Positions 14,175-63,077 of a DNA stretch of 64,000 bases are shown one piece after another; positions within the stretch are counted from its first letter, which is position 1; every line of letters starts with the position of its first letter. The notes under the pieces are model-generated. The model was given only the letters and a program-made list of their open reading frames with translations. It was not told where the DNA came from and did no database searches. Position numbers and translations under genes: made by a program. The DNA comes from a virus (lineage: Duplodnaviria > Heunggongvirae > Uroviricota > Caudoviricetes). The stretch lies in IMG/VR virus record IMGVR_UViG_3300029653_000083, positions 74,236 to 138,235 of that record; one strand, given 5' to 3'.

Positions 14175-14200
14175 TTTGTGTGAACAATTCCAGTATACAT
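14175..14200 (-). promoter_or_regulatory. motif 1
   Basis: tttgtgtgaacaattccagtatacat. Confidence 0.55.
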
Positions 14201-16122: not shown

Positions 16123-16148
16123 TTTGTGTGAACAATTCCAGTATACCT
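16123..16148 (-). promoter_or_regulatory. motif 1
   Basis: tttgtgtgaacaattccagtatacct. Confidence 0.55.
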
Positions 16149-16591: not shown

Positions 16592-16620
16592 TTTTTCTCC
16601 TTATGTCCTTCAACTTACTT

Positions 16621-16645
16621 TTGTGTGAACGATTCCAGTATACCT
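16621..16645 (-). promoter_or_regulatory. motif 1
   Basis: ttgtgtgaacgattccagtatacct. Confidence 0.55.
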
Positions 16646-16689
16646 CAAGAGAGGATAAAACACAAAAAGAGAGACGGGAACCAAAACGA

Positions 16690-16757
16690 AAACTGTTCCT
16701 CATTAACTTTTAAAGCATTATACTTATTATAATTATTATAAAATCAAGGAGACAGCA
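16690..16757 (+). promoter_or_regulatory. AT-rich sigma70-like promoter region for 16758..17915
   Basis: ~70% AT stretch with TATAAT/TATAAA hexamers and AAGGAG RBS in an otherwise 58% GC context. Confidence 0.45.
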
Positions 16758-19908: not shown

Positions 19909-21138
19909 TCACGGGTGAAAAGCCAGCTTCCGCATTTCACAATGCCTCCGATACCACGCTTTCTCCCGAGCGCACAGTCCACGACGGTGAGTTAGACCCG
20001 ACAGTGTGCTCTCATGGCTCGTCCAAGAATCCTGAACTGTCCGCAATCCCACATGCACGCCATCATATGAGCGGATAAGGTTACGCGCATGCCGTCGGCT
20101 TGCACGCAACGCCTTATGGTGCATGCGGATAAGAATACTGCCGTCATCCTGTACGCTGTATACGCGTTTCAGGAATGTGAGTTGACCGGTGCGACAGTCC
20201 ACTATGCGGGTCTTGCGCTTGTTCAACCGCAATCCCAATTGATTGACATGCCGCTCGTAACCGGCCAGCACACGTTCGGCCTGTTCACGATTCTTGCAGA
20301 AACAGTAGGCATCATCCATATACCGTCCGTAGAATCCTTGCGACATGCACCAGTGGTCAACCTTGTTCAAATACCAGATAGCCATGGTTTGGCTTGTCTG
20401 ATTGCCTAAACCCAAGTGAGGTTCGTCCAATACGAAGATTCTCAATACGGTTAGAATCCGTTCCACATCCTGCTTCTCCCGTCCGGTGCGGGCGATGCTC
20501 CGGTACAGGGTGGAAATCATATCGAACGCTCGTTGGGAGCTGATACTTCCGAAATAGTTGGAACAGTCGAAGATGACAGCATACGGATGCTCCCATTTGC
20601 CCAAAGCCCGCTTATAGTGTAGTTCGAACCGTTTTCGGGCGAACGATGTTCCACGTTTCGGTAGGCTTGCCGCATTATCGTATATCAGTTGGCTTTCCAC
20701 GATGGGGACGAGACTGTTGTCGCATAAGGCGCGTTGCACCACCCGGTCTCGGAAGGATACCGCGCTGATGTGGCGGAGTTTGCCTCGTTCGGAAATGTCG
20801 AATCGGATTGGCGCTCTCTTCTTGTATGTGCCGTCCTCTAATTCTTGGGCGAGTTTCCAACAGTTGACGGCACGCCTATTGTCGAAGTTCAACACTGTGT
20901 TTTTCCATGTGACGCCGCGTTTGCATTTTCTTGCGGCTTGGTAGAGCGCGTCGAATCCGAATGTTTGTTGGAAGTCGATGTAACGGTGGAGCTTCCTGTA
21001 CTTATCATCCGAGCGTTGTTGCAGTCTGCGTTGGCGTCTTCTACGTCTTTGACTCGCATTCACGATTTTAATGCTTCCTTCACTAGGGAAAGAGAAAAGA
21101 ATGGTTGAGGGCAGGTCGTCGGCAACAACCCAAGACAT
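19909..21138 (-). CDS. diversity-generating retroelement (DGR) reverse transcriptase
   Basis: RT motifs RHISAVSFRDRVVQRAL, FDCSNYFGSI, YMDDAY. Motif 4 reads LGNQTSQ (SQ signature of DGR RTs rather than the QGxxxSP of group II/retron RTs). TR lies 195 nt upstream. Alternative GTG start ~21060 possible. Confidence 0.85.
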   Translation of the reverse strand: MSWVVADDLPSTILFSFPSEGSIKIVNASQRRRRRQRRLQQRSDDKYRKLHRYIDFQQTFGFDALYQAARKCKRGVTWKNTVLNFDNRRAVNCWKLAQELEDGTYKKRAPIRFDISERGKLRHISAVSFRDRVVQRALCDNSLVPIVESQLIYDNAASLPKRGTSFARKRFELHYKRALGKWEHPYAVIFDCSNYFGSISSQRAFDMISTLYRSIARTGREKQDVERILTVLRIFVLDEPHLGLGNQTSQTMAIWYLNKVDHWCMSQGFYGRYMDDAYCFCKNREQAERVLAGYERHVNQLGLRLNKRKTRIVDCRTGQLTFLKRVYSVQDDGSILIRMHHKALRASRRHARNLIRSYDGVHVGLRTVQDSWTSHESTLSGLTHRRGLCAREKAWYRRHCEMRKLAFHP

Positions 21139-29344: not shown

Positions 29345-29451
29345 GCGGTTATAAAGAATCTAAAAAGTGGCGTGTCGATATTTGGGTTCCCGACACGCCA
29401 AGCGGAACATTTCATGCTTTTCCAACCGTCAAACGGTCAGAAAAGTTTTCT

Positions 29452-32837: not shown

Positions 32838-34178
32838 TCAGAACTCGTTTTCGAAACCTGCGGCCATGTCCGCGAATTTGGAGCATTCGCCCATGAACGC
32901 AAGGTTGAACGTTTCGGTAGGCCCGTTGCGATGTTTGGCGAGAATCACGTCGGCTTCGCCCGGACGTTCCTCACGGTCGTAGTATTCGGGACGATGCACG
33001 AGAAACACCATGTCGGCGTCCTGTTCGATGGAACCGGACTCTCGCAGGTCGGACAGTTCCGGCTTCTTGTCGGCACGCTGTTCCGCATTACGGTTCAACT
33101 GGGACAGCACGACCACGGGACATTGCAGTTCCTTGGCGAGCATTTTGCATTGGCGGGAGAAGTTCGACACTTCCTGCTGACGGTTCTCGACGGTTTTACC
33201 GGAGGACATGAGTTGCAGGTAGTCGATGACGATAAGCTTCAACCCGTTGACCTTGCGGCTGAGAGCACGGCATTTCGCACGGATGGTGCTCATGTTGATG
33301 ATGGCGGAATCATCAACCCACAATGGTGCCTTCTCGACCTGATGGCAGAGCGCGTTGAGTTTGTTCCAATCATTCGAGTTCAGATTCTCGGGATGTTGGA
33401 ACGATGCGAGACGGATGCCTGTTTCGGCTGCGAACATGCGTTGCATGAGTTCGTGACCGCCCATTTCCAGACTGAAAATCACAGTCGGCAGACCCTTGTG
33501 CAGTGCGGCGTTACGCGCGAAATCCATGCCGAGAGTACTCTTGCCCATGCCCGGACGTCCCGCGACTATGACCATTTGTCCGGCTTGCAATCCGTGTGTC
33601 AACGCGTCGATGTCACGGAAGCCGGTGGGTGTTCCGAACTCGTTCGGATTCTGTGACATTTCATCCAACTGTTGGAGCATTTCGTCGGACAGACGGTATG
33701 CGGTCTTCAACTCGTCGTCTTCGGAACGACTCGAATCCTCCAACGAGAACGCGGCCTCCAACGACTTGCTGAGCACATCTTCGGCTGACGCGTCGGACAC
33801 GTTGCTCATCTGCTGCAACTGTTGTCCGACCACGTTGATGTGGCGGAGGATGGCCGCGTCACGAATCTGCTTGATGAAATAGTCACTGTTGTTCGACGTG
33901 GGCGCGGAGCCGACAAGCTGGGCGATATAGTCGATACCGCCGACCTGTTCCAACTGTCCGTTGTCCATCATGTGCGAGGACAGCATTTGCGCGTCCACAC
34001 GGTTATTGTCTGCGGCCAGTTCCTTTATATTATGAAAGATGGTCTGGTTGGTCGGCTGGTAGAAGTCCTCTTCGGAAAGTTGGCTGATGACCTTGTCCAA
34101 CGTTTCCGAGTCTTGAAGCATGGCCCCCAACAATACTTGTTCGGCCATATCCTTGTGGATTGGTGTGGGGACGCTCAC
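32838..34178 (-). CDS. dnaB: replicative DNA helicase DnaB
   Basis: Walker A GRPGMGKST, Walker B LIVIDYLQLM, RecA-like C-domain and DnaB N-domain. Confidence 0.9.
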   Translation of the reverse strand: MSVPTPIHKDMAEQVLLGAMLQDSETLDKVISQLSEEDFYQPTNQTIFHNIKELAADNNRVDAQMLSSHMMDNGQLEQVGGIDYIAQLVGSAPTSNNSDYFIKQIRDAAILRHINVVGQQLQQMSNVSDASAEDVLSKSLEAAFSLEDSSRSEDDELKTAYRLSDEMLQQLDEMSQNPNEFGTPTGFRDIDALTHGLQAGQMVIVAGRPGMGKSTLGMDFARNAALHKGLPTVIFSLEMGGHELMQRMFAAETGIRLASFQHPENLNSNDWNKLNALCHQVEKAPLWVDDSAIINMSTIRAKCRALSRKVNGLKLIVIDYLQLMSSGKTVENRQQEVSNFSRQCKMLAKELQCPVVVLSQLNRNAEQRADKKPELSDLRESGSIEQDADMVFLVHRPEYYDREERPGEADVILAKHRNGPTETFNLAFMGECSKFADMAAGFENEF

Positions 34179-37237: not shown

Positions 37238-37264
37238 TGTTATACTGGAATCGTCCACAAAAAA
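37238..37264 (+). promoter_or_regulatory. motif 1 (plus orientation)
   Basis: tgttatactggaatcgtccacaaaaaa in divergent intergenic region. Confidence 0.5.
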
Positions 37265-40598: not shown

Positions 40599-41363
40599 AT
40601 GAACGAAGGAACCTATGGGCTGGAGACCCTGAAAGCCGACTATCATACGATACTCGGCTACGATATCGGCTATCTCACCGCGGAATCCTATCCACTGTTC
40701 GCACCCTATCGTGCGAAAACCAAGAACAGTTTCTCCGGTAGAGTACCGAGACTGTTAAGCATAATCATCACCACTCTCATTAACACGCCAAGCCGCGAAT
40801 GGGATGCGGAAACCCGCACGCTCACCATCGGCGACGACTTCTTCTTCCTCGCCAACAAATGCGGTTTGAACAGTGGAGGAGACGGACGCACTACCGTCCG
40901 GAACCAGCTTCTCATGCTCTCGTCAATCCAGTTCACCGGAGCGGACGGAGTCAAAGTCACGCCGGTCGAACACACCGAAATCACCGCCGACAGTCTCACT
41001 ATCGAGCATCGGAAAATCACGTTCACGGAACCGTTCGTAAAAATGATGACAAGGAACGTCCGGCAGATGCCGTTGAAGTGTCTGTACCCCAACGCGGGTA
41101 GCGCCATAGCGATAGACCTGCTCGCATTGGCGGCATTGTATTGTCCGAACGACCATAGGCTCATCATCGAACGGGCAGACCTTCCATCACTGCTTCCAGC
41201 AAGCAGGCAAAGCCTCTCCAAGCAGAATCTTCTAAATAGATTCAAGGAGTTAAACGACAGTCAGAACGAGTGGACGTATCGTATAACGAAATACAGTGTG
41301 ACCATCAGCCCGTTCGGAGTGTACTCATCCGAAGACGCTTTGAGATTACGTCGCAGACAATAG
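40599..41363 (+). CDS. hypothetical protein (254 aa)
   Basis: ORF track; AAGGAG RBS; degenerate motif 1 upstream. Confidence 0.5.
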   Translation: MNEGTYGLETLKADYHTILGYDIGYLTAESYPLFAPYRAKTKNSFSGRVPRLLSIIITTLINTPSREWDAETRTLTIGDDFFFLANKCGLNSGGDGRTTVRNQLLMLSSIQFTGADGVKVTPVEHTEITADSLTIEHRKITFTEPFVKMMTRNVRQMPLKCLYPNAGSAIAIDLLALAALYCPNDHRLIIERADLPSLLPASRQSLSKQNLLNRFKELNDSQNEWTYRITKYSVTISPFGVYSSEDALRLRRRQ

Positions 41364-41373
41364 TCCAAGCATG

Positions 41374-41410
41374 AAAAGAGGGGAGCCGACCGTAAGGCCG
41401 ACTCCCCTCA
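41374..41410 (-). terminator. rho-independent terminator for 41430..42152
   Basis: Minus-strand RNA forms 14-bp stem (2 GU) with UUAC loop followed by UUUUC. Confidence 0.6.
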
Positions 41411-41429
41411 ATGATGTCGGGTTGGAAAC

Positions 41430-42152
41430 TCAGATTTTCAGCTCATCGATAACGGAAAGGTCAACACCGTCACCCCAATTATCGACAATCTTGCTCAGGT
41501 TCTTACGCATTCCGGCAGGAGACTGGTCGTCAACCGGACGTCCGAAATTCTTCTCCGGCGCGACCGCGTTCAGCACGGAGAACAGCAGGTTGGTCATATC
41601 CTTGCCCTGCGCGAACACCAACGTCACCTCTGCGGCAATCATGCCCGGCTCGGCTGTAGCCAACCCTTCCAACGCGGACGCGAACTCAGAGATTCGACGT
41701 TGGTTCTTCGGCTCAGTCAATGCGTCCAGCACTGCTTCCGGAGTGCTCTTCTTCGTATCAGTCAACGCCTTGGCGAGAGAAACCACACGCTCGTCATCCA
41801 ACGATTTGACAAGAGGAATCAGCTTCTTGCCGAACTGTTCCTCGATGTGCGGCATGGTCTTCTCACGCGGTTTGCGATTGGAACGGCCCTTACCCTTCCC
41901 CCTCGGCTTGTCTTCGGTTTCAGTGGACTCAGCGTCCACGTTCACATCCTCACCATCAGCCGGTGCGGACACGTCAGAGACAGGCTCCGAACTCTCCTGA
42001 TTAAGAGAATCGGATTCCGTCTGCGACTCCTCGACAGAAGACTGCTCCGGTTCAGCATAATTGTCGGAACCGTAACCATTGTCCTGCTCCGACTGCTGGT
42101 TGTTGTTGAATCCCCAATTGGTGAAGTCTGGCATCATACCTTCTTTCGTCAT
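41430..42152 (-). CDS. hypothetical acidic protein with disordered N-terminus
   Basis: ORF track. Confidence 0.5.
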   Translation of the reverse strand: MTKEGMMPDFTNWGFNNNQQSEQDNGYGSDNYAEPEQSSVEESQTESDSLNQESSEPVSDVSAPADGEDVNVDAESTETEDKPRGKGKGRSNRKPREKTMPHIEEQFGKKLIPLVKSLDDERVVSLAKALTDTKKSTPEAVLDALTEPKNQRRISEFASALEGLATAEPGMIAAEVTLVFAQGKDMTNLLFSVLNAVAPEKNFGRPVDDQSPAGMRKNLSKIVDNWGDGVDLSVIDELKI

Positions 42153-42199
42153 ATCCAGCGAACACTCCGGTCGTACAGGCTGTTAACAGTCGGAACGAG

Positions 42200-43040
42200 G
42201 TGTTCTGTATTTTCAATTCACGAGTGTAACGCCCGACAGCATCCCTAAACGGGGAAAACGGGAAAAACAATTCCCCGCGCCGCCCGCGCCGGTAGTTCCA
42301 ACAGAAAAGCGGAACCAAAAAGAGTCCCCAACAAATATGAAAAAAGGAACAACACCCGACCATTATCAGAAAAAACATGAAAACCATCCAGTCCACGCCG
42401 GTAGGTCAACATGAATAGCAGACTCAAAAAAAAGAGAAAAACCAAAAATCAAAAAGACTAAAAGAAAGGAAGCACTACCCACCAAAAAATCAGAAAAAGA
42501 AACCAAACACCATCACATCAAAAAAGAATAACCAAGAAAATCAGAAAGAAAAGAAAAACCAAAAGGAAGAAAAGGAGAATATAAGAGCAGCAATCTTAAT
42601 CAAATAGAAGCAACAGAAGAACAGGACAATAAAAGAAGAAACACCTACCCCTAAATCGGGAATACAACGTATGAAAACAACAGAAGCAACGCAACCATCC
42701 ACAAAGGAACAGCACATCAACCCATATGGCATACAAAACAGAAGAACAACAGCACCAAACACCCCAAGAAACAAAAAAAGCCAAGCAACAGCACCACAAG
42801 GCAACAGGTCAAGCACCAGCACCAGCACAAACAACAACCAACAGCCACTACAACAACAAAAACAACAAAAAGGTCAATAGTCTCACTAACAAGGTCAACG
42901 ACAATCAAAACAAGGTAACATCAATACAGGAACAGCCAATGCAATGAAAAAAAGCAACAGCAAAACCAACAAAAAACTAAATATCAAAAAACTATAAATG
43001 CCAGAACTCGGACAAAACCGTAAACGTTCCGATGAAAACA
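42200..43040. other. strand-asymmetric A/C-rich low-complexity non-coding region (candidate oriT / leading-region control region)
   Basis: Plus strand almost devoid of T over ~0.85 kb, poly-A tracts and (A)nC repeats; divergent intergenic position next to T4SS genes. Confidence 0.4.
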
Positions 43041-43047
43041 ACGGAAC

Positions 43048-44262
43048 ATGACCCATCAGGAGGCGGTCTTATTGGAAAAACGAACGATTTCCCTGATAAT
43101 CGGCTCCGGAGGGCTTCTCACAACCATCAAAAAGGCCCTTACGAGAGCTGGAAACATGCGTTGGCAGGTGCCCGCCGCAGACAATATTCAAGCACAGGCC
43201 GACTATCTGGTAAGACATCCGGTGCCCTCCGGGTTCAAGGGAATCATCTTCACTGACAGGGCTGGAAACTGGCTTCCGATAGCCAACGCCGGATACATGG
43301 TCTACTGGTGCAACACCGGTCAGATACCGGTCGGAGCCATAGGCATGAGCGAACAGATGTTACGCATGAGCGTGGCTGATTTCGCACGGACTTATTGGGG
43401 AATCCAGCTTGCGGACAAGCGTCTCGTAGTCGATATCCTCCAAAACAAAGTGAAGGAAACTGCGGTTCTCCTACCCATCACATCCAACACCGGAGGAGTG
43501 GGGAAGACCACGTCCAGCCGACAGTTGGCAGACCGTGCGTCGCAAGCCGGATTGCGTGTTCTGCTCATCGACGGCAACATCAGACAGTCCAGTCAACGTA
43601 GTTTTTTCGACCCGAGACAGGACAAGCCATTGCATACGATAGCCGACTGGCGACCGGGCATGCAGGTGCAGGTCGGAGCCAATCGAGGACGTGACCTTGG
43701 GGTTCCATACGACATCTGTTTCGCACCTCCAGCAGGCGTCGGAGTGGACTGGCAGATATACCGTCAGTACATCCAAGCGGCACGCCGACTGTGGGATTTC
43801 GTCGTGCTCGACCTTGACCGAATCAGCGCGGACGATTTGGATGATAGGGAGAATATCGCCAACGGTTTACTGCTTCCATACATTCAATCGGGAGACCCTT
43901 GTCTGGTTATCATCAAGGCTGGAAGGCAGACGCAGATAGACGCGTTGAATCTGCTGACGGCCTTGGCTGAGCATCATCTTCCGAAGGAACTCATCGGAAT
44001 CAAGGACACCGTTCCGGTCGGACTGCAAGGTTACAGACGACTCGACTATACGAGATACGGAACGTTTCTCGGAACCGAATATCAGACGGTCGAGGCAAGC
44101 AACCATATCGCCAACGGTGATGTCAGATGGGATGACCCCGGTCTTGCTTTTGCTAGGGAGAACATTCTTAACTGGGCTTTGCCCGACCGTGGTTTCAATC
44201 CGGAAAGATTCAATCCGAACGCTAAGAACAGTGAAGGAAAGAAAGGTCGTGGGCGTAAGTGA
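43048..44262 (+). CDS. MinD/ParA/CpaE-superfamily P-loop ATPase with ~140-aa N-terminal domain
   Basis: Deviant Walker A ITSNTGGVGKTT; LLIDGN; architecture like CpaE/TadZ. Confidence 0.55.
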   Translation: MTHQEAVLLEKRTISLIIGSGGLLTTIKKALTRAGNMRWQVPAADNIQAQADYLVRHPVPSGFKGIIFTDRAGNWLPIANAGYMVYWCNTGQIPVGAIGMSEQMLRMSVADFARTYWGIQLADKRLVVDILQNKVKETAVLLPITSNTGGVGKTTSSRQLADRASQAGLRVLLIDGNIRQSSQRSFFDPRQDKPLHTIADWRPGMQVQVGANRGRDLGVPYDICFAPPAGVGVDWQIYRQYIQAARRLWDFVVLDLDRISADDLDDRENIANGLLLPYIQSGDPCLVIIKAGRQTQIDALNLLTALAEHHLPKELIGIKDTVPVGLQGYRRLDYTRYGTFLGTEYQTVEASNHIANGDVRWDDPGLAFARENILNWALPDRGFNPERFNPNAKNSEGKKGRGRK

Positions 44263-45455
44263 CATTCGATGACCGTTTTCTTTTCGACCCGAACGACGAG
44301 AATCTTTGGAAGACCGGAAGCATTGCCGACTGGTATAAAGGCAACGACATGTTCGAGATGGAGCATCCCGGATTGTTCGCGCAGACCCACCCGTGGTTCG
44401 TTGCGAACAAACTGTTCGCGGAGACAATGGTGAAAGCGAACAGCGAACTCGTTTCGAGTATCCTCGGCGCATTGTTCACTTGGAAGACATGCACGGTTGA
44501 CCAACTACGTGCGGGACTTTCCATCAAAGGCGCTCCCGCTTTCGAACGTGACGAACCGAACCTGTATGGTGCGATGAACCGTTTGGGAATCATCAACGTC
44601 GGTTTCAGTCAGGCGGAACGATTGTACGGTCAGACCGTGAATCATGTTTGGCTTTCACCGTCGAACAGTCCACGTCTTATCAACCGTGCGATGAAATTGT
44701 ACGGGATGGAAAAGTGGATGCGTGAGACGATGGCGGTTTCCTATTACGCGGGGAATCGTTTCCATGTTCGGCATAACACTTATGCGGCGCACGCGGGATT
44801 GATGTTGGCACGCGATTCACGCGTGAAATTCTCATCCGGTGATGGTTGGGGAAAATTCCGTAGCGTTGACCCACAGGCTGTTGCCGAGTCGAAGGTCGGC
44901 AAGGCTTGCGCGACCGACGTGGTGACGTTGTGCCGGAACAATGTGTTGGCGGGTATCGAAATCCAAACGTCCAACAGCGAATTGGATAAGAAGATGCAGA
45001 ACTGGGCTAAGATGCTCGCCTATTCTCCGATGAAGCGTCGCGGACTCATCTGCGTATGGTTGCAGATACCGAAGGCAAACGAAGGTTACGAATCGTTCAA
45101 CGCGGTGGTACAACGCACGCAAGGCATGACGGAAATGGTCGTGGGCAATCCTACCGTGTCGCAACGAATGGGAATCGCGGTCTGGGACGAATGGTTCGAG
45201 CATGGGATGCCGACCGACAGGTTCGGTGACTATACGGATATGAGTGGAACACGACGCAACATTTTCTCCGACGAGTGGGCGCAATATACTCCGCAGGTTC
45301 GTGACGTTCGCAAAGTCAGCGAATGGGGTTGGGACGTGACGCGAGACATCATAAAGAAGGATTGGGGTTGGGATGTTTCCGGTTGGACAATGCCGGAAGC
45401 GTACCGTGGCGGTTTCTACGGTTTCATTGGAAAGGATTGCGATGGTCTCCACTGA
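44259..45455 (+). CDS. hypothetical protein (398 aa), T4SS-associated
   Basis: ORF track; GTG start overlapping upstream stop. Confidence 0.5.
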   Translation: MTFDDRFLFDPNDENLWKTGSIADWYKGNDMFEMEHPGLFAQTHPWFVANKLFAETMVKANSELVSSILGALFTWKTCTVDQLRAGLSIKGAPAFERDEPNLYGAMNRLGIINVGFSQAERLYGQTVNHVWLSPSNSPRLINRAMKLYGMEKWMRETMAVSYYAGNRFHVRHNTYAAHAGLMLARDSRVKFSSGDGWGKFRSVDPQAVAESKVGKACATDVVTLCRNNVLAGIEIQTSNSELDKKMQNWAKMLAYSPMKRRGLICVWLQIPKANEGYESFNAVVQRTQGMTEMVVGNPTVSQRMGIAVWDEWFEHGMPTDRFGDYTDMSGTRRNIFSDEWAQYTPQVRDVRKVSEWGWDVTRDIIKKDWGWDVSGWTMPEAYRGGFYGFIGKDCDGLH

Positions 45456-45907: not shown

Positions 45908-48568
45908 ATGGGTAATCCGAACTGGTATCAGATAACCAGAACGTTGCAACAGTTAGACCCGGACGAGCAACGTTCTAAAGTGGAGAGCATTCCAGCCGAA
46001 CTGGATGGTTGCACCCTTCTCCTCATCAAGAAGGGCGAGGAGCCGGTCAAGGAATATATTTACGGTGACGGCGAGGGAATCGTCAACGCCGGACAGTTGG
46101 CTGGTTTTGACGCGAGACTGGTCGAAGACGACGACGGGCCGGTGTTGCCGGATGGCGTGAACAGTGCGGCGCATCCTCTTGTACCATTTCGCGCCCGGTT
46201 GAACTCGAAAAGCAACATGGAGAAGATGCGGACGAACTATTCCGGCGTTCGTACAAGCATCGAGAAGGTCATGCCGCCGGACAGTTATGTGAGCGTCACG
46301 CTTCGCAATCAGGGATACTTCGAGCAGATTCGCATTCGTAATTGGATTAGCGACGAATACAATGCGGTGGAGGATTCAAGCGAACTCGCTTCGACCAACA
46401 CGATGTGCGCCCGTGTGAGTTTCGGTTGCCGTCAGGCTTCGCGTAACCGACAGCTTGCGCAGAAGATTGGTCAAATCATCTGTCCGCTCATATCCAACAT
46501 GTCCAGTCATGCGAGCCGTCCGAAATTCGGTTTGCTGTTCGTCAGCATGCTGTTGGAAGTGTTGTCCGTGATTTGGAGTGTGTGCGGTCTTGCAAGAGGA
46601 TACGTGATGGATGGCGTGTTCCCATTGTTCCATTCCGCTTGGGGTTTCGGAATCGCGCTTCCACTGCTTGCGGTGACGTTGGTCGTGTTCCTGTTCCTCA
46701 TGCTGTTGTCGTGCATTCCGTTCGTTTACATTCCGCGACCTCAGATTGCCGGTGGCGCGGTGGCTCTCATGCTTTACCTGCTGTTGGGGTTGCTTCCGCT
46801 CCCGACATTCATTCCGATTCTTTTCGTTCCTCTTCTTGTATTCGCGTTCATCCGTTGGAAGAATTGGACGTTGTGGGATGACATTTTCCAAACGCCACGC
46901 AGATATTATGCGATTGCGAACGACCGTGGCGCGAACGAGTCCGATAATCAGACCCGTCTTGGCGTGCGAACTCATAAGGAGCGTGTGTCGGCTTATGGTG
47001 CGCAACGTACCACGTTGATTCTTTCCCCGATTATCGTGAGTTCCGTGTTCACTCCGGTCACTCAGGGAGTGGCGATGAAGCAGGAGTTGCATCCGGTTCC
47101 GGAAGTATTGTCTCATGATGGCATCTTCCTCGGGAAAGACGATACGGGACGTAACTGTTATCTCGACCCGTCGCAATTGTTCGGCGGTATCGCCATCAAC
47201 GGTGAAGCCGGTTCCGGTAAGACAGTTCTCACTCATGGCATCAGCCAGTGGGCAATCAGCGCACGAGAAACCACCAGTCCGAAAATCTGGGGGCGCGACT
47301 CCCGTATCATCCATTTTTGGATGAAGGATGATACCGGCGTCAACGTGTTGGAACGTTATCGCAAACGTCACGGTTTCACCAGTCCGCAGCGAGTCGTCTA
47401 CTTGGCAGACCCGAACAGTGTATGTTTGGACATGCTTGGCATGAAGGACGGGAACAATGCGATGGAGACTGCGGCGAGCGTGGCGAAAACCATGCGCTAC
47501 TCGTTCGATGACGGTGATATTCTGAACGACTCGCAGAACATCATCACCCAAGCGTTGACCATCGGCGTGGCGGTTGACCGTTACGTGCAGGAGGAGCGCA
47601 AGCATAATCCCGAATCCGCGAACAAGGATTGGGAAAGCGAGATTGTGAAACGTTGCCACCAGCTCGAACAATCGTATCCGGGTGCGGAACAGTTGCGAAT
47701 GCAGTTGAGTCCAATCGGATGGGCCGTCGTCGCATTATGCGGTTCCGACGGTCAGGCCGGTTCCGCGAAAGCGTTGGGCCATGTGTGCCGCGCGTTGAGC
47801 ATGGAGTTGAAGAGTGGCTACATGTTCGAGGAGATGACGTATGCGGCTCGTGCGGCCGAACAATTGTATGGCCGTCCGGATGCGGCTGGTCATACGGTTC
47901 GTTCCGACCGTGACATTCTTACGAAGACGAACGCTTCGTTGAACAAGGTGAACCAGTTCCTTCCCATCGAACACATGTTCACCGCACGCCGCGGCAAGGT
48001 GACTTGGACGAACATTCTCGACCATGCTGGCGATTATCACATTGTGCTCGCACCACATAATGGTTATTCGTTGCCGGAACGTATGGATAAGATTCTCGGC
48101 GGCTGGCTCATGTACCGTTTCTGGAATACGGTGTTCGCGCATTGCAAGGATTGGGACAAGGCGGGCAAGTGGACGATGCTCGTGTGCGACGAGTTGAGCC
48201 TGTTGGCTAACGGCAATGATGGCATCATGCCCGCATTGCGCGAGCAGGGCCGTTCGTTCGGTCTTCTTCTCGTGTTCGCCACCCAGTATCCGACCCAGTT
48301 GTCCGACGCGATGTTGGATTCGTTCATCGGCTATTCGACGTTCATCACATACAATACGACGATTCCGCGTATCGCCGATATGACGGCGAAGCGTCTGACG
48401 AACAATGACGGGGAGGATGGTTGGCGTTCAGGTGCGGTCATGAATCTTCCGCGTTATGCGGCGGCTGTTCGCACTCGAACCCAAGAACAGTTGCAGCCGA
48501 CATTCCTTGTCCATGTGAACGATTTCGATAACGGTTATCGCAATGGTGACATGGACGATGATGACTAG
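45908..48568 (+). CDS. type IV coupling protein (VirD4/TraG/TraD family)
   Basis: TM helices; Walker A NGEAGSGKT; Walker B MLVCDELSLL; VFATQYPTQL; AAAGGAAGG RBS. Confidence 0.8.
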   Translation: MGNPNWYQITRTLQQLDPDEQRSKVESIPAELDGCTLLLIKKGEEPVKEYIYGDGEGIVNAGQLAGFDARLVEDDDGPVLPDGVNSAAHPLVPFRARLNSKSNMEKMRTNYSGVRTSIEKVMPPDSYVSVTLRNQGYFEQIRIRNWISDEYNAVEDSSELASTNTMCARVSFGCRQASRNRQLAQKIGQIICPLISNMSSHASRPKFGLLFVSMLLEVLSVIWSVCGLARGYVMDGVFPLFHSAWGFGIALPLLAVTLVVFLFLMLLSCIPFVYIPRPQIAGGAVALMLYLLLGLLPLPTFIPILFVPLLVFAFIRWKNWTLWDDIFQTPRRYYAIANDRGANESDNQTRLGVRTHKERVSAYGAQRTTLILSPIIVSSVFTPVTQGVAMKQELHPVPEVLSHDGIFLGKDDTGRNCYLDPSQLFGGIAINGEAGSGKTVLTHGISQWAISARETTSPKIWGRDSRIIHFWMKDDTGVNVLERYRKRHGFTSPQRVVYLADPNSVCLDMLGMKDGNNAMETAASVAKTMRYSFDDGDILNDSQNIITQALTIGVAVDRYVQEERKHNPESANKDWESEIVKRCHQLEQSYPGAEQLRMQLSPIGWAVVALCGSDGQAGSAKALGHVCRALSMELKSGYMFEEMTYAARAAEQLYGRPDAAGHTVRSDRDILTKTNASLNKVNQFLPIEHMFTARRGKVTWTNILDHAGDYHIVLAPHNGYSLPERMDKILGGWLMYRFWNTVFAHCKDWDKAGKWTMLVCDELSLLANGNDGIMPALREQGRSFGLLLVFATQYPTQLSDAMLDSFIGYSTFITYNTTIPRIADMTAKRLTNNDGEDGWRSGAVMNLPRYAAAVRTRTQEQLQPTFLVHVNDFDNGYRNGDMDDDD

Positions 48569-49184: not shown

Positions 49185-49607
49185 ATGAGCGATGAGGAAG
49201 ACGAAGGATACAAAGGCCCCTTGCATCCGAGGTTGACAATGGACGACATCACGGAAGTGTCCGGCCCGGAGGAAATCGAACGGAAGAACACGTTCCAGAT
49301 AACCAAGAACACTGAGGCCCGTTCCAAAACCGTGTTCTCCGTTATCGTCGGCGCATTGGCGGGCTTGGCTCTTTGCCTCATATTCGCCCCGTTGCTCGGA
49401 TACATGTTCAGCTCGTTCTTCGTACTGTTGGGCGGAATACTGGCTCCGTTCTTCGCAGTCGGCACCATTAGAGACCGCACCCAACAGACACGGTGGAAGA
49501 GAACCTTGCAGGATATGAAGAGCCGCAAGATTGAAGGGCAGGTCTTCTACCCGAATTCCACTCAGCCGGAAAACATTATCGACCTTCAAGAAATGGAAAT
49601 CCGTTGA
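49185..49607 (+). CDS. membrane protein (2 TM)
   Basis: ORF track. Confidence 0.45.
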   Translation: MSDEEDEGYKGPLHPRLTMDDITEVSGPEEIERKNTFQITKNTEARSKTVFSVIVGALAGLALCLIFAPLLGYMFSSFFVLLGGILAPFFAVGTIRDRTQQTRWKRTLQDMKSRKIEGQVFYPNSTQPENIIDLQEMEIR

Positions 49608-52600
49608 ATACAAAATATCGAGACCCAGTGAAACGGGCGGGTAGAAGGAACCTGCTCGTCATTCTGATGTTGTGCGTGGTCATGACATTGTTCGTCTTGC
49701 CGTCCAGCGTGTTCGCCGCACAGGTCAACGATTCGACCACGACGATAACATGCGCCAACGGCGGGACTGACAGTGCTACATCAGACATCTCTAGTTGTCT
49801 TCCTTCCGGACGTTGGGGAAACTACGTTGGGGAAATCACTTCGCGTACGGAACCGTACAGTGGCAGCGATGTCGCCGGTTGGTTCTCGAACGTCAAGCAG
49901 ACCATCAGCTCGCAGACCCATATCGTCCTTCCCAACATTCTGATGCAGTTGACTCAGGTCTGCTGGTCTTCCGCATTGTCCATCAGCCAGTTCGCCGCTT
50001 CGTTCGAACCGATGAAACAGGCTGGTGCGAACATCGACTCCGCAGTGTCCACCATGGTGACGAGTCTGATGGACGGCGGTATCCCCGCCACCATCGCAGT
50101 GCTCGGCATCGTGGCTTGGGTTGGCGCGGCTGGATTCCAAATCGGCACCGTCAAAGAGGCGAGCAAACGAATCGTCATCATGGTTCTCTGCTTCGCTTCA
50201 ATCACGATGCTTGGAGCTGGAGCGGCCAAAACCGGAAAGAACGCCACAGAACCGGCGACCGGAAGCCCATGGTGGGTCGTGCAGACAATCAACAACACCA
50301 TCAACAAGCTTTCGGTCAACCTCGACCTTGACGGCATGGCAGACAGTGATAAAAACATGATGTCCTACCATCATGCGGCGAACGGTGCGAAAACCAATTG
50401 TCAGGATTACCTGTACTTCATGCATCAGGCGTATGACGAACAGGCGAAGTCCAACGGCAATCAGGATACAAGCAACATCACCAAGGCCATCAACCGTATT
50501 TGGGAGGAGACCTCCCTTCGCTCGTTCGTGACCATGCAGTACGGAAACCCGCAGACCACCGGAACATCCTCGTTCCGTATCGCGGAAAACGCCCGGCAAG
50601 GTTACTGCCACGTGTTGGAGATGAAAGCCAACACGAACACGACCATCCAGAAGGATTTGACCAACAAGGCCATGGCGTTGCACATCAGCGACCAGCGAGC
50701 CAAATGGTTGTTCTCCGTGGACGGTTGGGTAGACCCGCGTAATCCTTACTTCACCGACAAACCGTTGGAAAGGGAGAACGCGACATATCTCAGCCGTGCG
50801 GGCGTGTTCTGGGAAACCTGTGGCACGAAACGCAATCAGGAAATCTACGCGCGAGCCGGATGGGCGACACTCATCAACAACCTCGGTGACACAGGAACCA
50901 AGAACATCAAGAACGGCAGTACGAAAGTACGTGTCAAGATTGACGACTTGGACAATGTGAAACCGACCAACGGTGGCAAAGGCGTGATGGACGCGAAACA
51001 GAACGGCAGTGAAGACGAAACCATCCAACAGACCACTTCGGTCTGCCAGACGATTCTCAAACAGGGTTCCGTAATCTTCTCCCGTTCCACCGATATCAAC
51101 AAGGAGGATGACGGAACATATAAAGACCAGCAGAACGACACCAACTGGGGCGACTCCGCTACGGTCGGATGGCGTTTCGACGTGCCGAACGTTTCCGGAA
51201 CTTGGAGTGAGGCGAATCTTCGTGACGCTCAGGATGATTCCACTGTCACGGGCGGTGCGAAGAAAACCATCGACTACATGTATGGCAACAACAACGTCGA
51301 TACGTTGGGTGCTTGCGGAACACTTATCGGAGGCATCGTCAATCTCGTGGTCTGGGGATTGTTGAGCCTTGTTCTAATACTGACGAAGCTCATGCTGATA
51401 ATGATGGCGTTGTTCCTCGTGGTCACGTTCCTTGTCCAAGCGTTCCCGATTGGCGAGAAGCCGAAGAACGCGTTGAAGAACTGGGCGACGTACACCTGCC
51501 AGTTGAGTATGGTAGGAGCGTTGTACGGTGCGCTCGGTACTCTCGCAACATTCATTTGTGGCCTGACGTTGAAGTTCACCTCTGCCAGCAGTGGTTCGTT
51601 CACCTACCAGTTGATTGCGGGATTGAGTCCGGTGTTGGCTATCGCCGCAATCGGCATGTTCTGTTCGAAAGTGTTGAAGTGGGGTAATCCGTTCAGCATC
51701 AACGCTCTCATGGGAATGGCGGGTGGAACCGCAATGGCTTCCGGTCTTCGCAAGGGAATGCACATGATTGGACAGCACCGTATGATTCGCGCCATGCGTG
51801 GCGGATTCCGTCGTGGCGGCAATGGTGTCGGACGTTTGTCCACGAACGGTACCGGCGCTGGCATGGCCCATAACGGAGCACGTCAAAGCGAGACCGTCCT
51901 AAGCAAGATGAGCCGCGCACAACAGGATTCGTTGAGTCAGGGCGATAGGAATCTGATGAATCGTAACGCCAAGGAGTTCGAGGCGATTCAGACGCGTGGA
52001 CGCGGAAGCAAGAACTGGGCACGAATGGACAAGAGCACAGTGAGAGGAAGTCTTGCCGGTGCGAAACTCCATTTTGAGGATTCCACGGGCAAGTTCAAGG
52101 GACGGTTGAACAAAGCCGTTTCCAAGTTCCATGGCGAGGACAATACGGAGGCGTTCGCCCATAGTATCGCCCAACGTCACCCGGGCATGTCCCTCAACGA
52201 TGTGCAACGCAAAGCACAAAGGATGAACCATCTGAACAATGCCGGACGCAAACTCCAAGGTGCGGCAAGAGTCGCCGGAGCCGGAGCCGCAATGGCCGGT
52301 GCCGGTCTCGCTTTCGCCGCACGAGCCGCGAAGAGCGCACCGTTGCGTAACGTCGTAGCACGTGGCGCGAAGGTCGCCGCGAAAGCCGCTGTCACCGGAG
52401 CTTTGTTCTCCAATCCGATTACCGCACCGTTGGGATTGATTGCCGCTGGAAAGCTGGCCGCCGACCGTAACCTGCATCATGGTATAGCGGTGGGTGCGGG
52501 AGCCGCGATGGATAAAATCCGCGACATCAGGAACGCCGCTCCCGGCAGTATGAGAGAACGCGACCAGTGGCGTCGCGACGTGTTGGGCATGGCTAATGGT

Positions 52601-53611
52601 GACGCTCCGTTGTCGTCTCCGTTCTCCGGCGCCGGTGACGGTGGTTCCGACAATGGTGACAGTCCTATGCCTTCTCCGTCGGCTCCGAATCCGGATGTCC
52701 CAACCCAAACCGGTGGTGTCGGTGGCGCGTCGCCGATTCCGACGGACGCGCAGACTGAGACGATTCCGATTGGCGCTCCGACTGGTCCGATTCCAGCGGA
52801 CGCCCAAGGACAGCATGCTCCGGTGTTGACTGAACAGTCCGCGTTCAATCAGGTTCGTGAGGGAATGATGGCCGACTTCGTGGATAACCAGCACATGTCC
52901 CAAGAGGATGCGGAACAGGCTTTCCAAGAGGCCGTCTCCTCCGGCGAGGTCGATAATTCCGTCCAAGCGTATATGAGCCAGAACAATCAATCTCCTAATG
53001 AGAATGCGACAGCTCAACCCGAAACGAACGCCAACCAGCCGGTGTACAACACTGAGACAGGTGAGATTGTTGGTGAGACCCTACCCTCCGGAACGATGGA
53101 CGCCGCCGTGTCCTCCGCCTCCACTTGGCAGAAGGCAACCGACAATGCGACTCCGATGCCTGAATCGGTGAACAATTCACTGCAACAGGCGTACATGCGC
53201 GAGAATCCGGTGCAACAGTCTCCGGAGGAGCATTTGCGGATGGCTCAGGAGGAATGGACTGCGACGACCGGACTGCCGGGGTCTACGATGCCGTCGGGTG
53301 CCGAACGGGCTATGAACCCGAATGGAATTCAGCCGAGTAGAAAATTCACGGTGGATTCCGGGCAGACGCAACAGCAGGGTTCGGTACAGGCGCAAGCTCC
53401 GCGACAGCAGTCTCAACCGCAGCCACAAGCTCAGGTAAGACAACAGCCGTCGGTTCGAATGCAACCGCCAACCACACCTTCCCCGACCGTCAAACAGCCG
53501 GTGGACGCCAACCCGTCAAACCTGACAGGTTTCCCCTCCGTAGGCAATCTTCGTATGAAGAAACCGCCGACCGGAGGACAGCCGACACCCAAACCGCCGT
53601 TCATGAAGTGA
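49604..53611 (+). CDS. VirB6/TrbL-like polytopic membrane protein with long Ala/Gly- then Pro/Gln-rich C-terminal tail
   Basis: Signal peptide, multiple TM helices mid-protein, ~600-aa low-complexity tail; TTG start overlapping upstream stop. Confidence 0.55.
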   Translation: MNTKYRDPVKRAGRRNLLVILMLCVVMTLFVLPSSVFAAQVNDSTTTITCANGGTDSATSDISSCLPSGRWGNYVGEITSRTEPYSGSDVAGWFSNVKQTISSQTHIVLPNILMQLTQVCWSSALSISQFAASFEPMKQAGANIDSAVSTMVTSLMDGGIPATIAVLGIVAWVGAAGFQIGTVKEASKRIVIMVLCFASITMLGAGAAKTGKNATEPATGSPWWVVQTINNTINKLSVNLDLDGMADSDKNMMSYHHAANGAKTNCQDYLYFMHQAYDEQAKSNGNQDTSNITKAINRIWEETSLRSFVTMQYGNPQTTGTSSFRIAENARQGYCHVLEMKANTNTTIQKDLTNKAMALHISDQRAKWLFSVDGWVDPRNPYFTDKPLERENATYLSRAGVFWETCGTKRNQEIYARAGWATLINNLGDTGTKNIKNGSTKVRVKIDDLDNVKPTNGGKGVMDAKQNGSEDETIQQTTSVCQTILKQGSVIFSRSTDINKEDDGTYKDQQNDTNWGDSATVGWRFDVPNVSGTWSEANLRDAQDDSTVTGGAKKTIDYMYGNNNVDTLGACGTLIGGIVNLVVWGLLSLVLILTKLMLIMMALFLVVTFLVQAFPIGEKPKNALKNWATYTCQLSMVGALYGALGTLATFICGLTLKFTSASSGSFTYQLIAGLSPVLAIAAIGMFCSKVLKWGNPFSINALMGMAGGTAMASGLRKGMHMIGQHRMIRAMRGGFRRGGNGVGRLSTNGTGAGMAHNGARQSETVLSKMSRAQQDSLSQGDRNLMNRNAKEFEAIQTRGRGSKNWARMDKSTVRGSLAGAKLHFEDSTGKFKGRLNKAVSKFHGEDNTEAFAHSIAQRHPGMSLNDVQRKAQRMNHLNNAGRKLQGAARVAGAGAAMAGAGLAFAARAAKSAPLRNVVARGAKVAAKAAVTGALFSNPITAPLGLIAAGKLAADRNLHHGIAVGAGAAMDKIRDIRNAAPGSMRERDQWRRDVLGMANGDAPLSSPFSGAGDGGSDNGDSPMPSPSAPNPDVPTQTGGVGGASPIPTDAQTETIPIGAPTGPIPADAQGQHAPVLTEQSAFNQVREGMMADFVDNQHMSQEDAEQAFQEAVSSGEVDNSVQAYMSQNNQSPNENATAQPETNANQPVYNTETGEIVGETLPSGTMDAAVSSASTWQKATDNATPMPESVNNSLQQAYMRENPVQQSPEEHLRMAQEEWTATTGLPGSTMPSGAERAMNPNGIQPSRKFTVDSGQTQQQGSVQAQAPRQQSQPQPQAQVRQQPSVRMQPPTTPSPTVKQPVDANPSNLTGFPSVGNLRMKKPPTGGQPTPKPPFMK

Positions 53612-54119: not shown

Positions 54120-54287
54120 CTGTTCCGCCTGTAAACCTGTACGCCGTTCCATTGTTTTACTGGAATGTTTCTCCGAACGGTTTTCCAGTTCGGCGTGCCG
54201 ACTTTTCGCCGTTGTTATCATCGAAACAAAAAACATACCCCCACCATGATTCCGTCCACACCGGAAGCAGAAAAAGGAAACCAGAAC

Positions 54288-54950
54288 ATGAGAGTCAAAA
54301 ACCATACGGTCATCATCACCGTCGCAATCATCAAAGGCGGTTCAGGAAAAACAACCACATCAATGGCATTGGCCGAACTATTGCACAAACGCGGGGAACA
54401 AGTCACAGTCTTGGACTCCGACAACACGGGCGGCGCGACCATGTGGGAAATGTACGTCGAACAGGAAAACCGCAGACGCAGACAGGACAATCCGGACGCG
54501 AAACCATACACGCTCGGCTTCCCCGTCGTGCAAACCAACGAAGCCGTATTGAACAATCCGGAACTCATCCGCGAAAAATATTCAGGCTGGGTCATCATCG
54601 ACACCCCACCGTCCGACGCGGGAGTGGTACAGGCGGCGATAAACGCGGGCGACGTGGTGATAATCCCATGCCAGCCATCCGTATCCGATTTGACCCACGC
54701 GGGACGCACATACGCGGCGGCACGCAACGGCATCGTCCTGTTGACACGCGTGAAGCCGAGAACGAAACTCGCCCGGAACAGCATCAGCGAACTGGATGAG
54801 GAAGGCATCGCACGGTTCGAAACCGTCATCACGGAACGTGAAGCCGTCAAGAACATGTACGGCACAACCGAAATCGACAACAAGGAATATTCCAGCGTCG
54901 TGCAGGAACTCATCGACTATCTGTCTGAAATCAATCTGGTGGAAGAATAA
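54288..54950 (+). CDS. parA: ParA family partition ATPase
   Basis: Deviant Walker A AIIKGGSGKTTT; internal ATG with AAAGGAAA RBS. Confidence 0.8.
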   Translation: MRVKNHTVIITVAIIKGGSGKTTTSMALAELLHKRGEQVTVLDSDNTGGATMWEMYVEQENRRRRQDNPDAKPYTLGFPVVQTNEAVLNNPELIREKYSGWVIIDTPPSDAGVVQAAINAGDVVIIPCQPSVSDLTHAGRTYAAARNGIVLLTRVKPRTKLARNSISELDEEGIARFETVITEREAVKNMYGTTEIDNKEYSSVVQELIDYLSEINLVEE

Positions 54951-54980: not shown

Positions 54981-55436
54981 ATGGTCAAGAACATCAAACG
55001 CAACGCTTTCGCAACAGGAATGCAGGACAAGCGTGACATGCGCCCATTGGAATCACCGGAAAACATTAGCGAACCGAACACGGAGCAGGAACCGACACAG
55101 GCCGTTCCTGAAACGCGGGAACCGTCAGACCAGTCAGTCCAAACGTCCGCCGACATGCACGCCCAAACGCTCACGGAGGAAGAAGCCGACCGTCGGGCAC
55201 GGCTCATCACCGACATAACCCATCCTGAAACACCGGCACCATCCGAAACGCATCAGCCGCCGAAAGAGAAAAGAATCGGCAGCAACGTCACCGTCGAGAA
55301 CTGGCGGGCATGGAAATTGAAAAGCATCGAATACGGGACGAAACAGGCTGTATTGTTGAATGCCGCGATGGACTACTGCTTCCAGCAGGGACACTTCGAC
55401 CAGACGCTCATCGACAAGTACGAGCAGAAGGAATAG
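54981..55436 (+). CDS. putative partition adaptor / centromere-binding protein
   Basis: Immediately downstream of parA; disordered acidic N-half, conserved C-terminal domain. Confidence 0.35.
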   Translation: MVKNIKRNAFATGMQDKRDMRPLESPENISEPNTEQEPTQAVPETREPSDQSVQTSADMHAQTLTEEEADRRARLITDITHPETPAPSETHQPPKEKRIGSNVTVENWRAWKLKSIEYGTKQAVLLNAAMDYCFQQGHFDQTLIDKYEQKE

Positions 55437-56741: not shown

Positions 56742-56779
56742 CTTTCAACCCGAAACGCCTACTCCCATAAGGGATTTCG

Positions 56780-56930
56780 ACACCTGCAAAAGGTATACAA
56801 AAGATTACAAAAGATATTAATATCCCTTGTATTCCCTTCTTTTTCAAAAAACAAGTTTTTCAAAAAGAAGCAAAAAATCAAAAAATTAGAATAAAACCAT
56901 TTTTTGATTCTACGTTCAGACAGGGTGAAC
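56780..56930. other. AT-rich region (candidate DNA unwinding element of oriV)
   Basis: ~75% AT, adjacent to iterons. Confidence 0.45.
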
Positions 56931-57167
56931 CCTGAGCAACGATTATCCTCAATGCTGTTTTTCGTTTCAACAACGTTGACGTTTAGACAGGTCTGAATGT
57001 TTTCGAGGGAAGAGAGAAAAAGAAAAGTTCCGGAAAAAGAAAAACAGAGAAGCCGACACCGCCGGTGGATGCATGTAGAAAACCCCGAAGCCGATATAGG
57101 AAACCTCGGACGGAAGGTAGACTTGAAGACAGTGCATGACAAGCGGAAATGAATTCGGAGCGGAACT

Positions 57168-63050: not shown

Positions 63051-63077
63051 TGTTATAGTGGAACTGTTCACATAAAA
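63051..63077 (+). promoter_or_regulatory. motif 1
   Basis: tgttatagtggaactgttcacataaaa. Confidence 0.5.

Follow-up and report, generated by a model that had tools for sequence, protein, structure and literature searches.

Long untranslated 5' leaders that act as Rho-loading (Rho utilization, or rut) or attenuation regions are known from E. coli rho, mgtA, corA and rpoS, and a rut region comprises at least about 80 nucleotides (nt) of unstructured, untranslated RNA with more C than G. In conjugation, the MOBC relaxases (for example, pAD1 TraX and CloDF13 MobC) have a restriction-endonuclease fold. The ParA-like VirC1 acts at the T-DNA border, and beside this border lies overdrive, a conserved 24-bp strand-asymmetric element (GT-rich/AC-rich). 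Here we describe a non-coding tract, rich in A and poor in T on its plus strand, that lies upstream of a transfer-related operon in a 64,000-nt stretch of IMG/VR record IMGVR_UViG_3300029653_000083 (positions 74,236 to 138,235; this whole stretch is called 'the window' below). The reading that we tentatively favour is that the tract is a leader or spacer heading the transfer operon, selected for its composition, unconstrained in sequence, free of structure and untranslatable, which would serve as a loading zone for a Rho-like factor.

The tract stands out by composition. The plus strand of 42300-43000 contains 54.2% A, 23.4% C, 13.7% G and 8.7% T. A maximal-segment scan of both strands of the 64 kb assigns an A-rich/T-poor segment at 42300-42991 a score of 165, against 29 or less everywhere else. 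Among segments of 700 bp, the tract holds both the A maximum (0.543; next outside region, 0.37) and the T minimum (0.083; next, 0.129), and 42228-42977 is the most T-depleted segment of the window. The strand-asymmetric A-rich tract claimed in the original prediction is thus real. Its plus strand, described there as almost T-free, is T-poor only (8-9%), and the replicon, given as 58% GC, is 52.8% GC in the window (A 23%, C 26%, G 26.5%, T 24%). The proposed 0.85-kb extent, 42200-43040 (A 50%, T 10%), has to be shortened to 42300-42991, because the left 100 bp (42200-42295) are conserved flank of ordinary composition. Within the tract, A+G content is higher towards the left and A+C content towards the right.

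Of all 300-bp stretches in the window, the one with the lowest duplex stability lies in the tract. Two intergenic regions elsewhere (56752-57050 and 16540-16840), also AT-rich at 34-38% GC, melt almost as easily and are strand-symmetric; it is therefore strand asymmetry, and not A+T richness, that makes the tract special. As a consequence of this asymmetry, -10-like hexamers (TANNNT) are about four times rarer on both strands than in strand-symmetric sequence of the same GC content (11 compared with 42 +/- 7).

The tract and the conserved elements that frame it are as follows.

42153-42272, no strand assigned: conserved left flank of ordinary composition, 97-100% identical among close plasmids
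42273-42292, plus strand: GC box, a pure G+C run, CCCCGCGCCGCCCGCGCCGG, with two copies of a 9-bp unit
42295-42315, plus strand: palindrome GTTCC-N11-GGAAC at the left tract edge, broken in some lineages
42296-42870, plus strand: hypervariable core, non-coding and random-like under its skewed composition, evolving mainly by 1-nt insertions or deletions (indels) and block replacement
42300-42991, plus strand: full maximal A-rich/T-poor segment (A 0.54, C 0.24, G 0.14, T 0.08)
42870 and 42891 (AAGGTCAA) and 42912 (AAGGTAAC), plus strand: right-block direct repeats with an exact spacing of 21 bp
42922-43025, plus strand: conserved A-rich stretch from a -10-like hexamer to the next palindrome
43026-43047, plus strand: palindrome or hairpin GTTCCG-N10-CGGAAC just before the gene, with conserved stems and varying loops

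The gene that follows encodes a ParA-like protein. It shares 56% identity with the protein named 'CobQ' on the conjugative megaplasmids of Bifidobacterium (B. breve pMP7017 and the B. longum plasmids), and identical or 99% identical copies of it are present on metagenome contigs of 200-220 kb from the human gut. The window thus represents a lineage of its own within the pMP7017-type family. Megaplasmids of this type are conjugative and occur in about one tenth of sampled human gut microbiomes (PMC10832533). About 90 loci (L numbers below) were fetched for comparison, and tracts were called only in those with enough upstream DNA. Where present, an A-rich/T-poor segment lies upstream of the ParA-like gene, always on the sense strand, over a range of protein identities from 43 to 100%. 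Its length depends on the lineage.

Window lineage: 598-735 nt
A 51% lineage: 488 nt
pMP7017, B. longum, a 77% lineage, a 62%-GC lineage and Pseudoscardovia suis: 270-350 nt
Three lineages: 90-165 nt
Two syntenic lineages: 36-54 nt

Tracts of at least 90 nt have A contents of 0.49-0.57 and T contents of 0.01-0.09 in hosts of 51-63% GC, with L027, a partial contig, as the exception (A 0.43). B. callitrichidarum has another gene upstream, yet the GC box and tract remain with the operon. In pMP7017 (KM406416) the core corresponds to about 52,870-53,290, with the GC box at about 53,250 and the ParA-like start at 52,653.

While composition is kept, sequence is not. In the window lineage, identity is 94-100% over the flanks (42153-42295 and 42871-43047). 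Over the core (42296-42870) it drops to 83%, with 167 gap columns in the alignment, for plasmids that agree at 97-99% in their flanks; against a 93% relative the core is unalignable (53%). Core indels are mostly of a single A or C. Since the core is hypervariable, and is reduced to 36-54 nt in two syntenic lineages, it cannot be a site that is essential by its sequence, as a nic region would be; functions that depend on sequence must lie in the conserved flanks, namely the GC box (42273-42292) and the right block (42870-43047). The tract itself probably works through composition rather than sequence. The variability among syntenic plasmids that the original prediction had named as a ground for refutation is thus found in the core, but the flanks are conserved. 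A recent duplication inside the tract of the B. longum plasmid (L002 5530-5800, repeated caacaaagcaacgaacc units; 11-mer repeat z = 17) shows that duplication is one mode of tract growth. About 15 of the 74 metagenome contigs with a ParA-like gene end no more than 800 bp upstream of it (L012, L018, L022, L027, L032, L050-L053, L058, L059, L062 and L075-L077); assembly breaks in the tract are consistent with low complexity and strain heterogeneity. DNA of the tract had no match among PLSDB plasmids in near or distant search modes, and an initial single-protein scan of genome contigs returned nothing.

Conserved elements frame the core on both sides. The GC-box core, CGCCCGCGCC, is unique in the window and lies 20-77 nt left of the tract in most lineages, in one to three or more tandem copies. 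An inverted repeat (GGGGAA, 42251-42256; TTCCCC, 42271-42276) is present in the left flank, and several lineages retain AAAGCGGAACC(n)AAAAAG, the right half of the left palindrome. A 38-nt imperfect direct repeat (42284-42321 and 42393-42430, 74% identity, motif CGCCGGTAG(G/T)TC), whose duplication is also seen in the 96% relative L023, means that a GC-box-associated motif is present twice at the left end of the tract. On the right, the AAGGTAAC repeat overlaps a -10-like hexamer, TAACAT (42916-42921), with the counterparts TAATAT, TATCAT and TAATCT in other lineages, usually preceded by GG. A hexamer of this type is plausible as an extended -10 element, judged by its sequence, and 42922-43025 would then probably be a 5' untranslated region (UTR). 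In the right palindrome, pMP7017 and B. longum have the stems TTCCG/CGGAA, and a lineage of high GC content has another palindromic pair, TTATTGGA/TCCAATAA. Three more GTTCC-N(9-13)-GGAAC palindromes occur elsewhere (19177-19198, 29386-29408 and 55104-55122), giving five in the window where 1.5 +/- 1.1 are expected. Transcription of the minus-strand gene presumably starts from a promoter in the left flank, where TATTTT (42209-42214) may also belong to a distal promoter for the plus strand.

Several functions can be set aside for the tract. ORFs (open reading frames) across its plus strand are, as originally reported, of low complexity and span only 69-73 amino acids (aa). A protein-coding tract was rejected since open frames are those expected from shuffles (the longest stop-free stretch is 90 aa, against 94 +/- 26 in shuffles) and the 271 indels between close relatives are mostly of 1 nt, with multiples of three in 14%; the low-complexity protein whose translation had been considered is dismissed on the same grounds. 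In RefSeq, the T-rich strand of the pMP7017 tract (L001 5351-5626; record 53034-53309) carries an annotated hypothetical protein of 91 aa (WP_172685975.1), which, given its composition and absent conservation, is probably a spurious call.

A non-coding RNA was among the functions originally suggested; Rfam covariance models gave no match at E<=1 over 41000-44000, so no known structured family is indicated. Single-strand initiation, or an Frpo-type single-stranded DNA promoter, would call for extensive intrastrand structure, and the plus strand is essentially unfoldable: its minimum free energy is -2.5 to -13 kcal/mol per 150 nt compared with a window mean of -41.5 +/- 9.4 (more than 3 standard deviations weaker), and the minus strand folds likewise weakly. 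In eight of nine lineages the plus strand is also less stable than composition-matched shuffles, which the minus strand is not. The binding array proposed for a DNA-structuring protein lacks the regular repeated motif that it would need: searches for iterons and tandem arrays in the core gave only weak two-copy matches and short low-score tandem hits, with no DnaA-box-like or centromere-like repeats in the tract and no inverted repeats inside the core, and the three repeats spaced by 21 bp are confined to the right block. Repeated k-mers are slightly above shuffle expectation in the core of every lineage, mostly with z below 2, and the sequence is mostly random-like. Curved A-tract DNA or an UP element was rejected because phasing shows no power at a period of 10-11 bp in seven lineages; A-run lengths equal shuffle expectation.

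Mutation bias was also considered. Four-fold degenerate sites of the flanking genes are neither A-rich nor T-poor on the tract's strand, so that regional or transcription-coupled bias is rejected. Deamination of an exposed strand was set aside because tracts at an analogous place in Micrococcales (described below) are depleted in A, not C. Among single-nucleotide polymorphisms (SNPs), T was the minor allele in 14 cases and the major one in 9, with no clear purging of T. A constraint on one strand points to a single-stranded nucleic acid (RNA or transferred DNA) or to avoidance of motifs that need both A and T.

If the nucleic acid concerned is RNA, transcripts of the operon would include the core in a long 5' leader, of which nothing would be required but that it remain single-stranded and free of translation. 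Being nearly devoid of U, it would contain almost no AUG, GUG or UUG start codons, no U-runs and hence no intrinsic terminators, and no A-U or G-U pairs; G-C pairs would be few, G or C being locally scarce. Rho, or another protein that binds single-stranded RNA, could readily load on such a leader, and the transfer operon would be kept low by default (through premature termination or polarity) unless termination were overridden. Sequence-specific control would then be exerted from the flanks by the GC box, left palindrome, 21-bp repeats, -10-like element and the palindrome near the ribosome-binding site. We infer, rather than observe, transcription of the core, the use of Rho or another factor and lowered operon expression.

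An unstructured leader is supported by the sense-strand polarity of the tract, turnover with constant composition, unbiased four-fold sites and the lack of single-strand structure. It is also favoured by the excess of C over G in long tracts (median C/G ratio of 1.5-2.6 in long-tract lineages compared with a window median of 1.0) and by promoter-like elements that point into the GC box. For example, L054 has a sigma-70-like promoter matching at 9 of 12 positions (TAGCCA-17-TATACT) directed into the GC box and tract, the sole match in consensus promoter scans of five lineages; L003 and pMP7017 have TATA-like hexamers immediately to the left of this box. A 34-bp promoter motif of this plasmid family has been derived from transcriptome analysis of pMP7017 (PMC10832533). 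The window contains ten copies (TATACTGGAAyTGTyCACAc), none of them at the tract.

4727-4746, 7998-8017, 10440-10459, 10908-10927, 12280-12299, 13840-13859, 14178-14197 and 16126-16145, minus strand: promoter motif copies
37241-37260 and 63054-63073, plus strand: promoter motif copies

Each copy is followed by an A-rich/T-poor 5' UTR of 22-50 nt and a strong Shine-Dalgarno sequence. These genuine 5' UTRs share the make-up of the tract, and this was counted in favour of a leader.

A number of observations weigh against it. The pMP7017 transcriptome paper (PMC10832533) mentions no long leader or non-coding RNA at the locus. The conserved -10-like hexamer with its GG sits downstream of the hypervariable core and, if it were the only promoter, the core would not be transcribed; the more distal promoter-like hexamers are not present in all lineages (L084 is without the TATTTT of the window). 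The excess of C over G, a hallmark of rut regions, fails in the short-tract lineages L054, L065 and L003 (median C/G of 1.06 or less), and selection for Rho loading alone would not remove U. In addition, the tract is nearly absent from the two syntenic lineages that retain 36-54 nt. Finally, the largest tract in Micrococcales megaplasmids is A-poor, not T-poor, so a common explanation as an unstructured leader does not cover both.

The second possibility, about which we are somewhat more doubtful, is that the intergenic region is the origin of transfer (oriT) and the T-poor tract the adjoining zone that is unwound first. The GC box and palindrome, the right-hand repeats and palindrome, or both, would be the nick or recognition region for a nuclease and for the ParA-like protein as an accessory. 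The tract would be easily melted, free of hairpins once single-stranded and poor in -10 hexamers, and would either give a helicase or the coupling protein a strip to load on or form the front end of the strand that is transferred; with T scarce on one strand and A on the other, it presumably also contains few palindromic restriction sites with A/T. The neighbouring genes are relevant here.

41430-42152, minus strand: divergent gene for a 240-aa protein with N-terminal MPDFxNWGFN, an acidic disordered region, a basic patch (KGKxKGRxNRKPREK) and a helical C-terminal domain
43048-44262, plus strand: ParA/MinD-type P-loop ATPase with a family-specific 140-aa N-terminal domain
44259-45455, plus strand: 398-aa protein with a winged helix and a PD-(D/E)xK (restriction-endonuclease fold) nuclease domain, a candidate DNA-processing enzyme
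45908-48568, plus strand: 886-aa HerA/FtsK-superfamily ATPase, coupling-protein-like
49604-53611, plus strand: presumed membrane protein of 1335 aa, faintly similar to the CD3337/EF1877 family of mobilome membrane proteins (VirB6-like)

The original prediction placed the first gene of a type IV secretion system at 43048. A transfer-related operon does begin here, but its first product is a ParA/MinD-type P-loop protein, and the true start is, from the sequence context, probably TTG 43072: ATG 43048 has no ribosome-binding site and abuts the palindrome, while TTG 43072, with AGGAGG at 43058-43063, fits the N-termini of the family. This family has 45 members, all at least 45% identical and restricted to these plasmids, and a profile search for more distant relatives found none. 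A tblastn match to an Arthrobacter-type 'AAA ATPase' (H8, L083) proved to be an unrelated locus.

The operon order is ParA-like ATPase, winged-helix PD-(D/E)xK nuclease, small protein, coupling-protein-like ATPase and VirB6-like membrane protein, and by its gene content it is probably a DNA-processing module for conjugation with a non-canonical nuclease. Over 517 aa, the 886-aa ATPase shares 26% identity (E 2e-35) with a protein of pACHL01 (Pseudarthrobacter) annotated by PGAP as a type IV coupling protein. Members of the nuclease family (L001 7161-8360, L088 4938-6335, L089 5022-6350, L090 4881-6347 and L091 5905-7506) share the invariant residues H172, D220, E234 and K245 and always adjoin a coupling-protein-like ATPase, in actinobacterial megaplasmids typed as non-mobilizable. 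The window's protein has the N-terminal helix-turn-helix (HTH) and PD-(D/E)xK domains expected of a MOBC-type relaxase. It has no Pfam, NCBIfam or PADLOC match, even among 40 remote members, and no sequence match in the PDB; no neighbouring protein matches a curated relaxase family of Pfam or NCBIfam, and MOB-suite finds no relaxase. The family is thus a candidate non-canonical relaxase or nickase, and its assignment to the MOBC type, by analogy, is a lead.

These neighbours make an oriT in this intergenic region plausible. All compared megaplasmids are typed as non-mobilizable by MOB-suite, although pMP7017 is described as conjugative (PMC10832533); the pMP7017 papers searched (PMC10832533, PMC8313286) describe neither a relaxase nor an oriT nor the tract region. 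There is, moreover, one tract per plasmid by the segment scan (both in the 190-kb pMP7017 and in the window), and it lies directly upstream of the operon that pairs the nuclease with a coupling-protein homologue, flanked by direct repeats and palindromes. The low duplex stability and scarcity of TANNNT noted above would fit a zone of early unwinding, as the fold of the MOBC relaxases and the action of VirC1 would fit the two proteins.

The same gene pairing recurs in Micrococcales megaplasmids, where the nuclease homologue directly follows the coupling-protein gene. Upstream of the latter gene, pACHL01, Curtobacterium pS16 and Arthrobacter zg-Y1110 have unannotated gaps of 1.6-1.9 kb, each including a stretch of 0.7-0.9 kb with 4-9% A on the sense strand.

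L088 1049-1744: A-poor tract of pACHL01
L089 1078-1913: A-poor tract of Curtobacterium pS16
L091 1821-2696: A-poor tract of Arthrobacter zg-Y1110

Between this stretch and the gene there follow 150-400 nt that are T-poor and either C/A-rich or G/A-rich. GGGGC-NNNN-GCCCC hairpins recur in L088 and L091, and Rfam gave no match in the three loci. Glaciihabitans and Euzebya relatives have no such gaps. As only six non-bifidobacterial loci were inspected, this parallel is a lead; it argues against a purely accidental origin of the bifidobacterial tract.

What tells against an origin of transfer is mainly the core, too variable for a nic region and almost gone from two syntenic lineages, so that it could be at most an accessory part. 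It contains no inverted repeats, no nic consensus is known or recognisable, and the overdrive consensus TAARTYNCTGTRTNTGTTTGTTTG has no match with up to three mismatches. The nuclease, as stated, is only a candidate relaxase. In pMP7017, FtsK/SpoIIIE-type proteins and RepA are encoded about 45 kb away and oriT could be there, and the tract of this plasmid is only its fourth least stable 300-bp region. Of the oriT signal originally suggested, there remains a unique non-coding cis region at the head of a transfer-related operon, where an oriT is plausible; the core is not its nic region.

The tract might instead be neutral low-complexity DNA, an explanation that we consider rather unlikely. A short A-rich seed, upstream of a promoter or in a 5' UTR, would have been expanded by slippage and small duplications, its composition being inherited and without function. 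This would account for lengths of 36-735 nt that vary even between plasmids with 99%-identical flanks, for the predominance of single A or C indels, for the slight k-mer excess in every lineage and the B. longum duplication (k = 11), and for the absence of a conserved motif, phasing or structure. SNPs without clear purging of T, and the same composition in the plasmid's ordinary short 5' UTRs, also agree with it. It does not account for a narrow composition kept down to 43% protein identity and across hosts of 51-63% GC, next to unbiased four-fold sites, or for sequence that is random-like rather than repeat-like. Nor can a single A-rich seed explain Micrococcales tracts at an analogous place that are depleted in another base.

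A more elaborate proposal joins several of these elements and is, taken as a whole, unlikely. The GC box, T-poor tract and repeat/palindrome block would be the oriT of an unrecognised actinobacterial conjugation system, its 'relaxase' would be a nickase with a winged helix and restriction-endonuclease fold encoded beside the coupling protein, and the one-base-depleted strand would be an unstructured, composition-only leader, poor in -10-like hexamers and presumably in restriction sites with A/T, fed first into the transfer machinery. This design would recur in Micrococcales megaplasmids, with tracts depleted in either A or T.

A role for the double-stranded DNA is improbable. In this case the tract would act as an insulator, AT-rich but free of promoters, or would nucleate the binding of an AT-hook-like or nucleoid-associated protein (candidates being the 240-aa protein with its KGKxKGR patch or a Lsr2-type silencer), which would silence the transfer operon or insulate it from the divergent gene. 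Its position between divergent genes, its 63% A+T in a 53% GC plasmid, the depletion of -10-like hexamers on both strands relative to symmetric AT-rich DNA and the conserved basic Gly/Lys/Arg patch of the divergent protein are in accordance with this. Duplex binding, however, neither needs nor explains strand asymmetry, A-tracts are unphased with run lengths like those of shuffles, and other intergenic regions are equally AT-rich. The 240-aa gene is unlinked to the tract in B. callitrichidarum, and a fold search with its product was uninformative.

A low-complexity K/N/Q/T-rich protein, a vegetative replication origin (oriV) or a partition centromere is highly improbable: plus-strand stops are rare, short ORFs exist and this is an AT-rich region near genes for a ParA-like protein and DnaB, but with the open stretches, indels and lack of repeats described above, with oriV of pMP7017 mapped experimentally at repB some 67 kb away (PMC8313286) and with a canonical ParA encoded elsewhere in the window, these readings are essentially excluded.

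Other genes of the window include those for a reverse transcriptase (19909-21138, minus strand), an ArdC-N/IrrE-type anti-restriction protein (8157-9011, minus strand), a plasmid DnaB helicase (32838-34178, minus strand) and the canonical ParA partition ATPase (54165-54950, plus strand).

The main interest of the locus is that it makes the transfer mechanism of gut megaplasmids testable. It offers a candidate both for the cis region (GC box, tract and repeat/palindrome block) and for the enzyme (the nuclease paired with a coupling-protein homologue). The tract would be a cis element conserved only in composition and strand polarity, a class to which alignment-based annotation is blind. If it is a leader of the Rho type, it would provide a handle on the silencing of transfer genes in bifidobacteria, which is relevant where such plasmids are to serve as genetic tools. 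As neutral slippage DNA, it would still be useful as a hypervariable strain marker and a known assembly breakpoint. For a strand-asymmetric cis region at a transfer operon that is defined by composition only, nothing comparable was found in the literature searched.

Compared with known systems, the tract resembles rut leaders in being long, untranslatable and unstructured, with more C than G in the long-tract lineages, and in that composition prevails over sequence and length variation is tolerated. It is unlike them in that it contains more than 50% A and is specifically depleted in U, which is not a requirement of rut, and in that the excess of C over G fails in three lineages. A length of 0.3-0.7 kb and hypervariability between near-identical plasmids would also be unusual for a rut leader, as which the tract would in any case have to be transcribed.

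Like oriT regions of the MOBC type, the region is a unique intergenic site heading an operon for a protein with HTH and PD-(D/E)xK domains and a coupling-protein homologue; it is AT-rich and easily melted, with direct repeats and palindromes in its flanks. It differs from them in having no known nic sequence, in the bulk of it being hypervariable and dispensable in some lineages, and in a nuclease without sequence similarity to curated relaxase families. Extreme depletion of one base on one strand was not found described for oriT regions in the literature searched on strand-asymmetric elements at transfer regions.

As with VirC1 and overdrive, a ParA-type ATPase is encoded by the first gene beside the candidate cis-acting transfer region. 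The tract is, however, 30 times longer than overdrive and its sequence is not conserved. Partition-type ATPases such as R388 StbB also act at oriT, and the literature search brought up PMC4949242 and PMC12421886 in this connection.

With low-complexity DNA generated by slippage, finally, the tract has in common that it is rich in indels and polymorphic in length and that its composition is kept while its sequence is not. It is unlike such DNA in being mostly random-like, in occupying one syntenic site across deep divergence and in having a parallel in another actinobacterial order.

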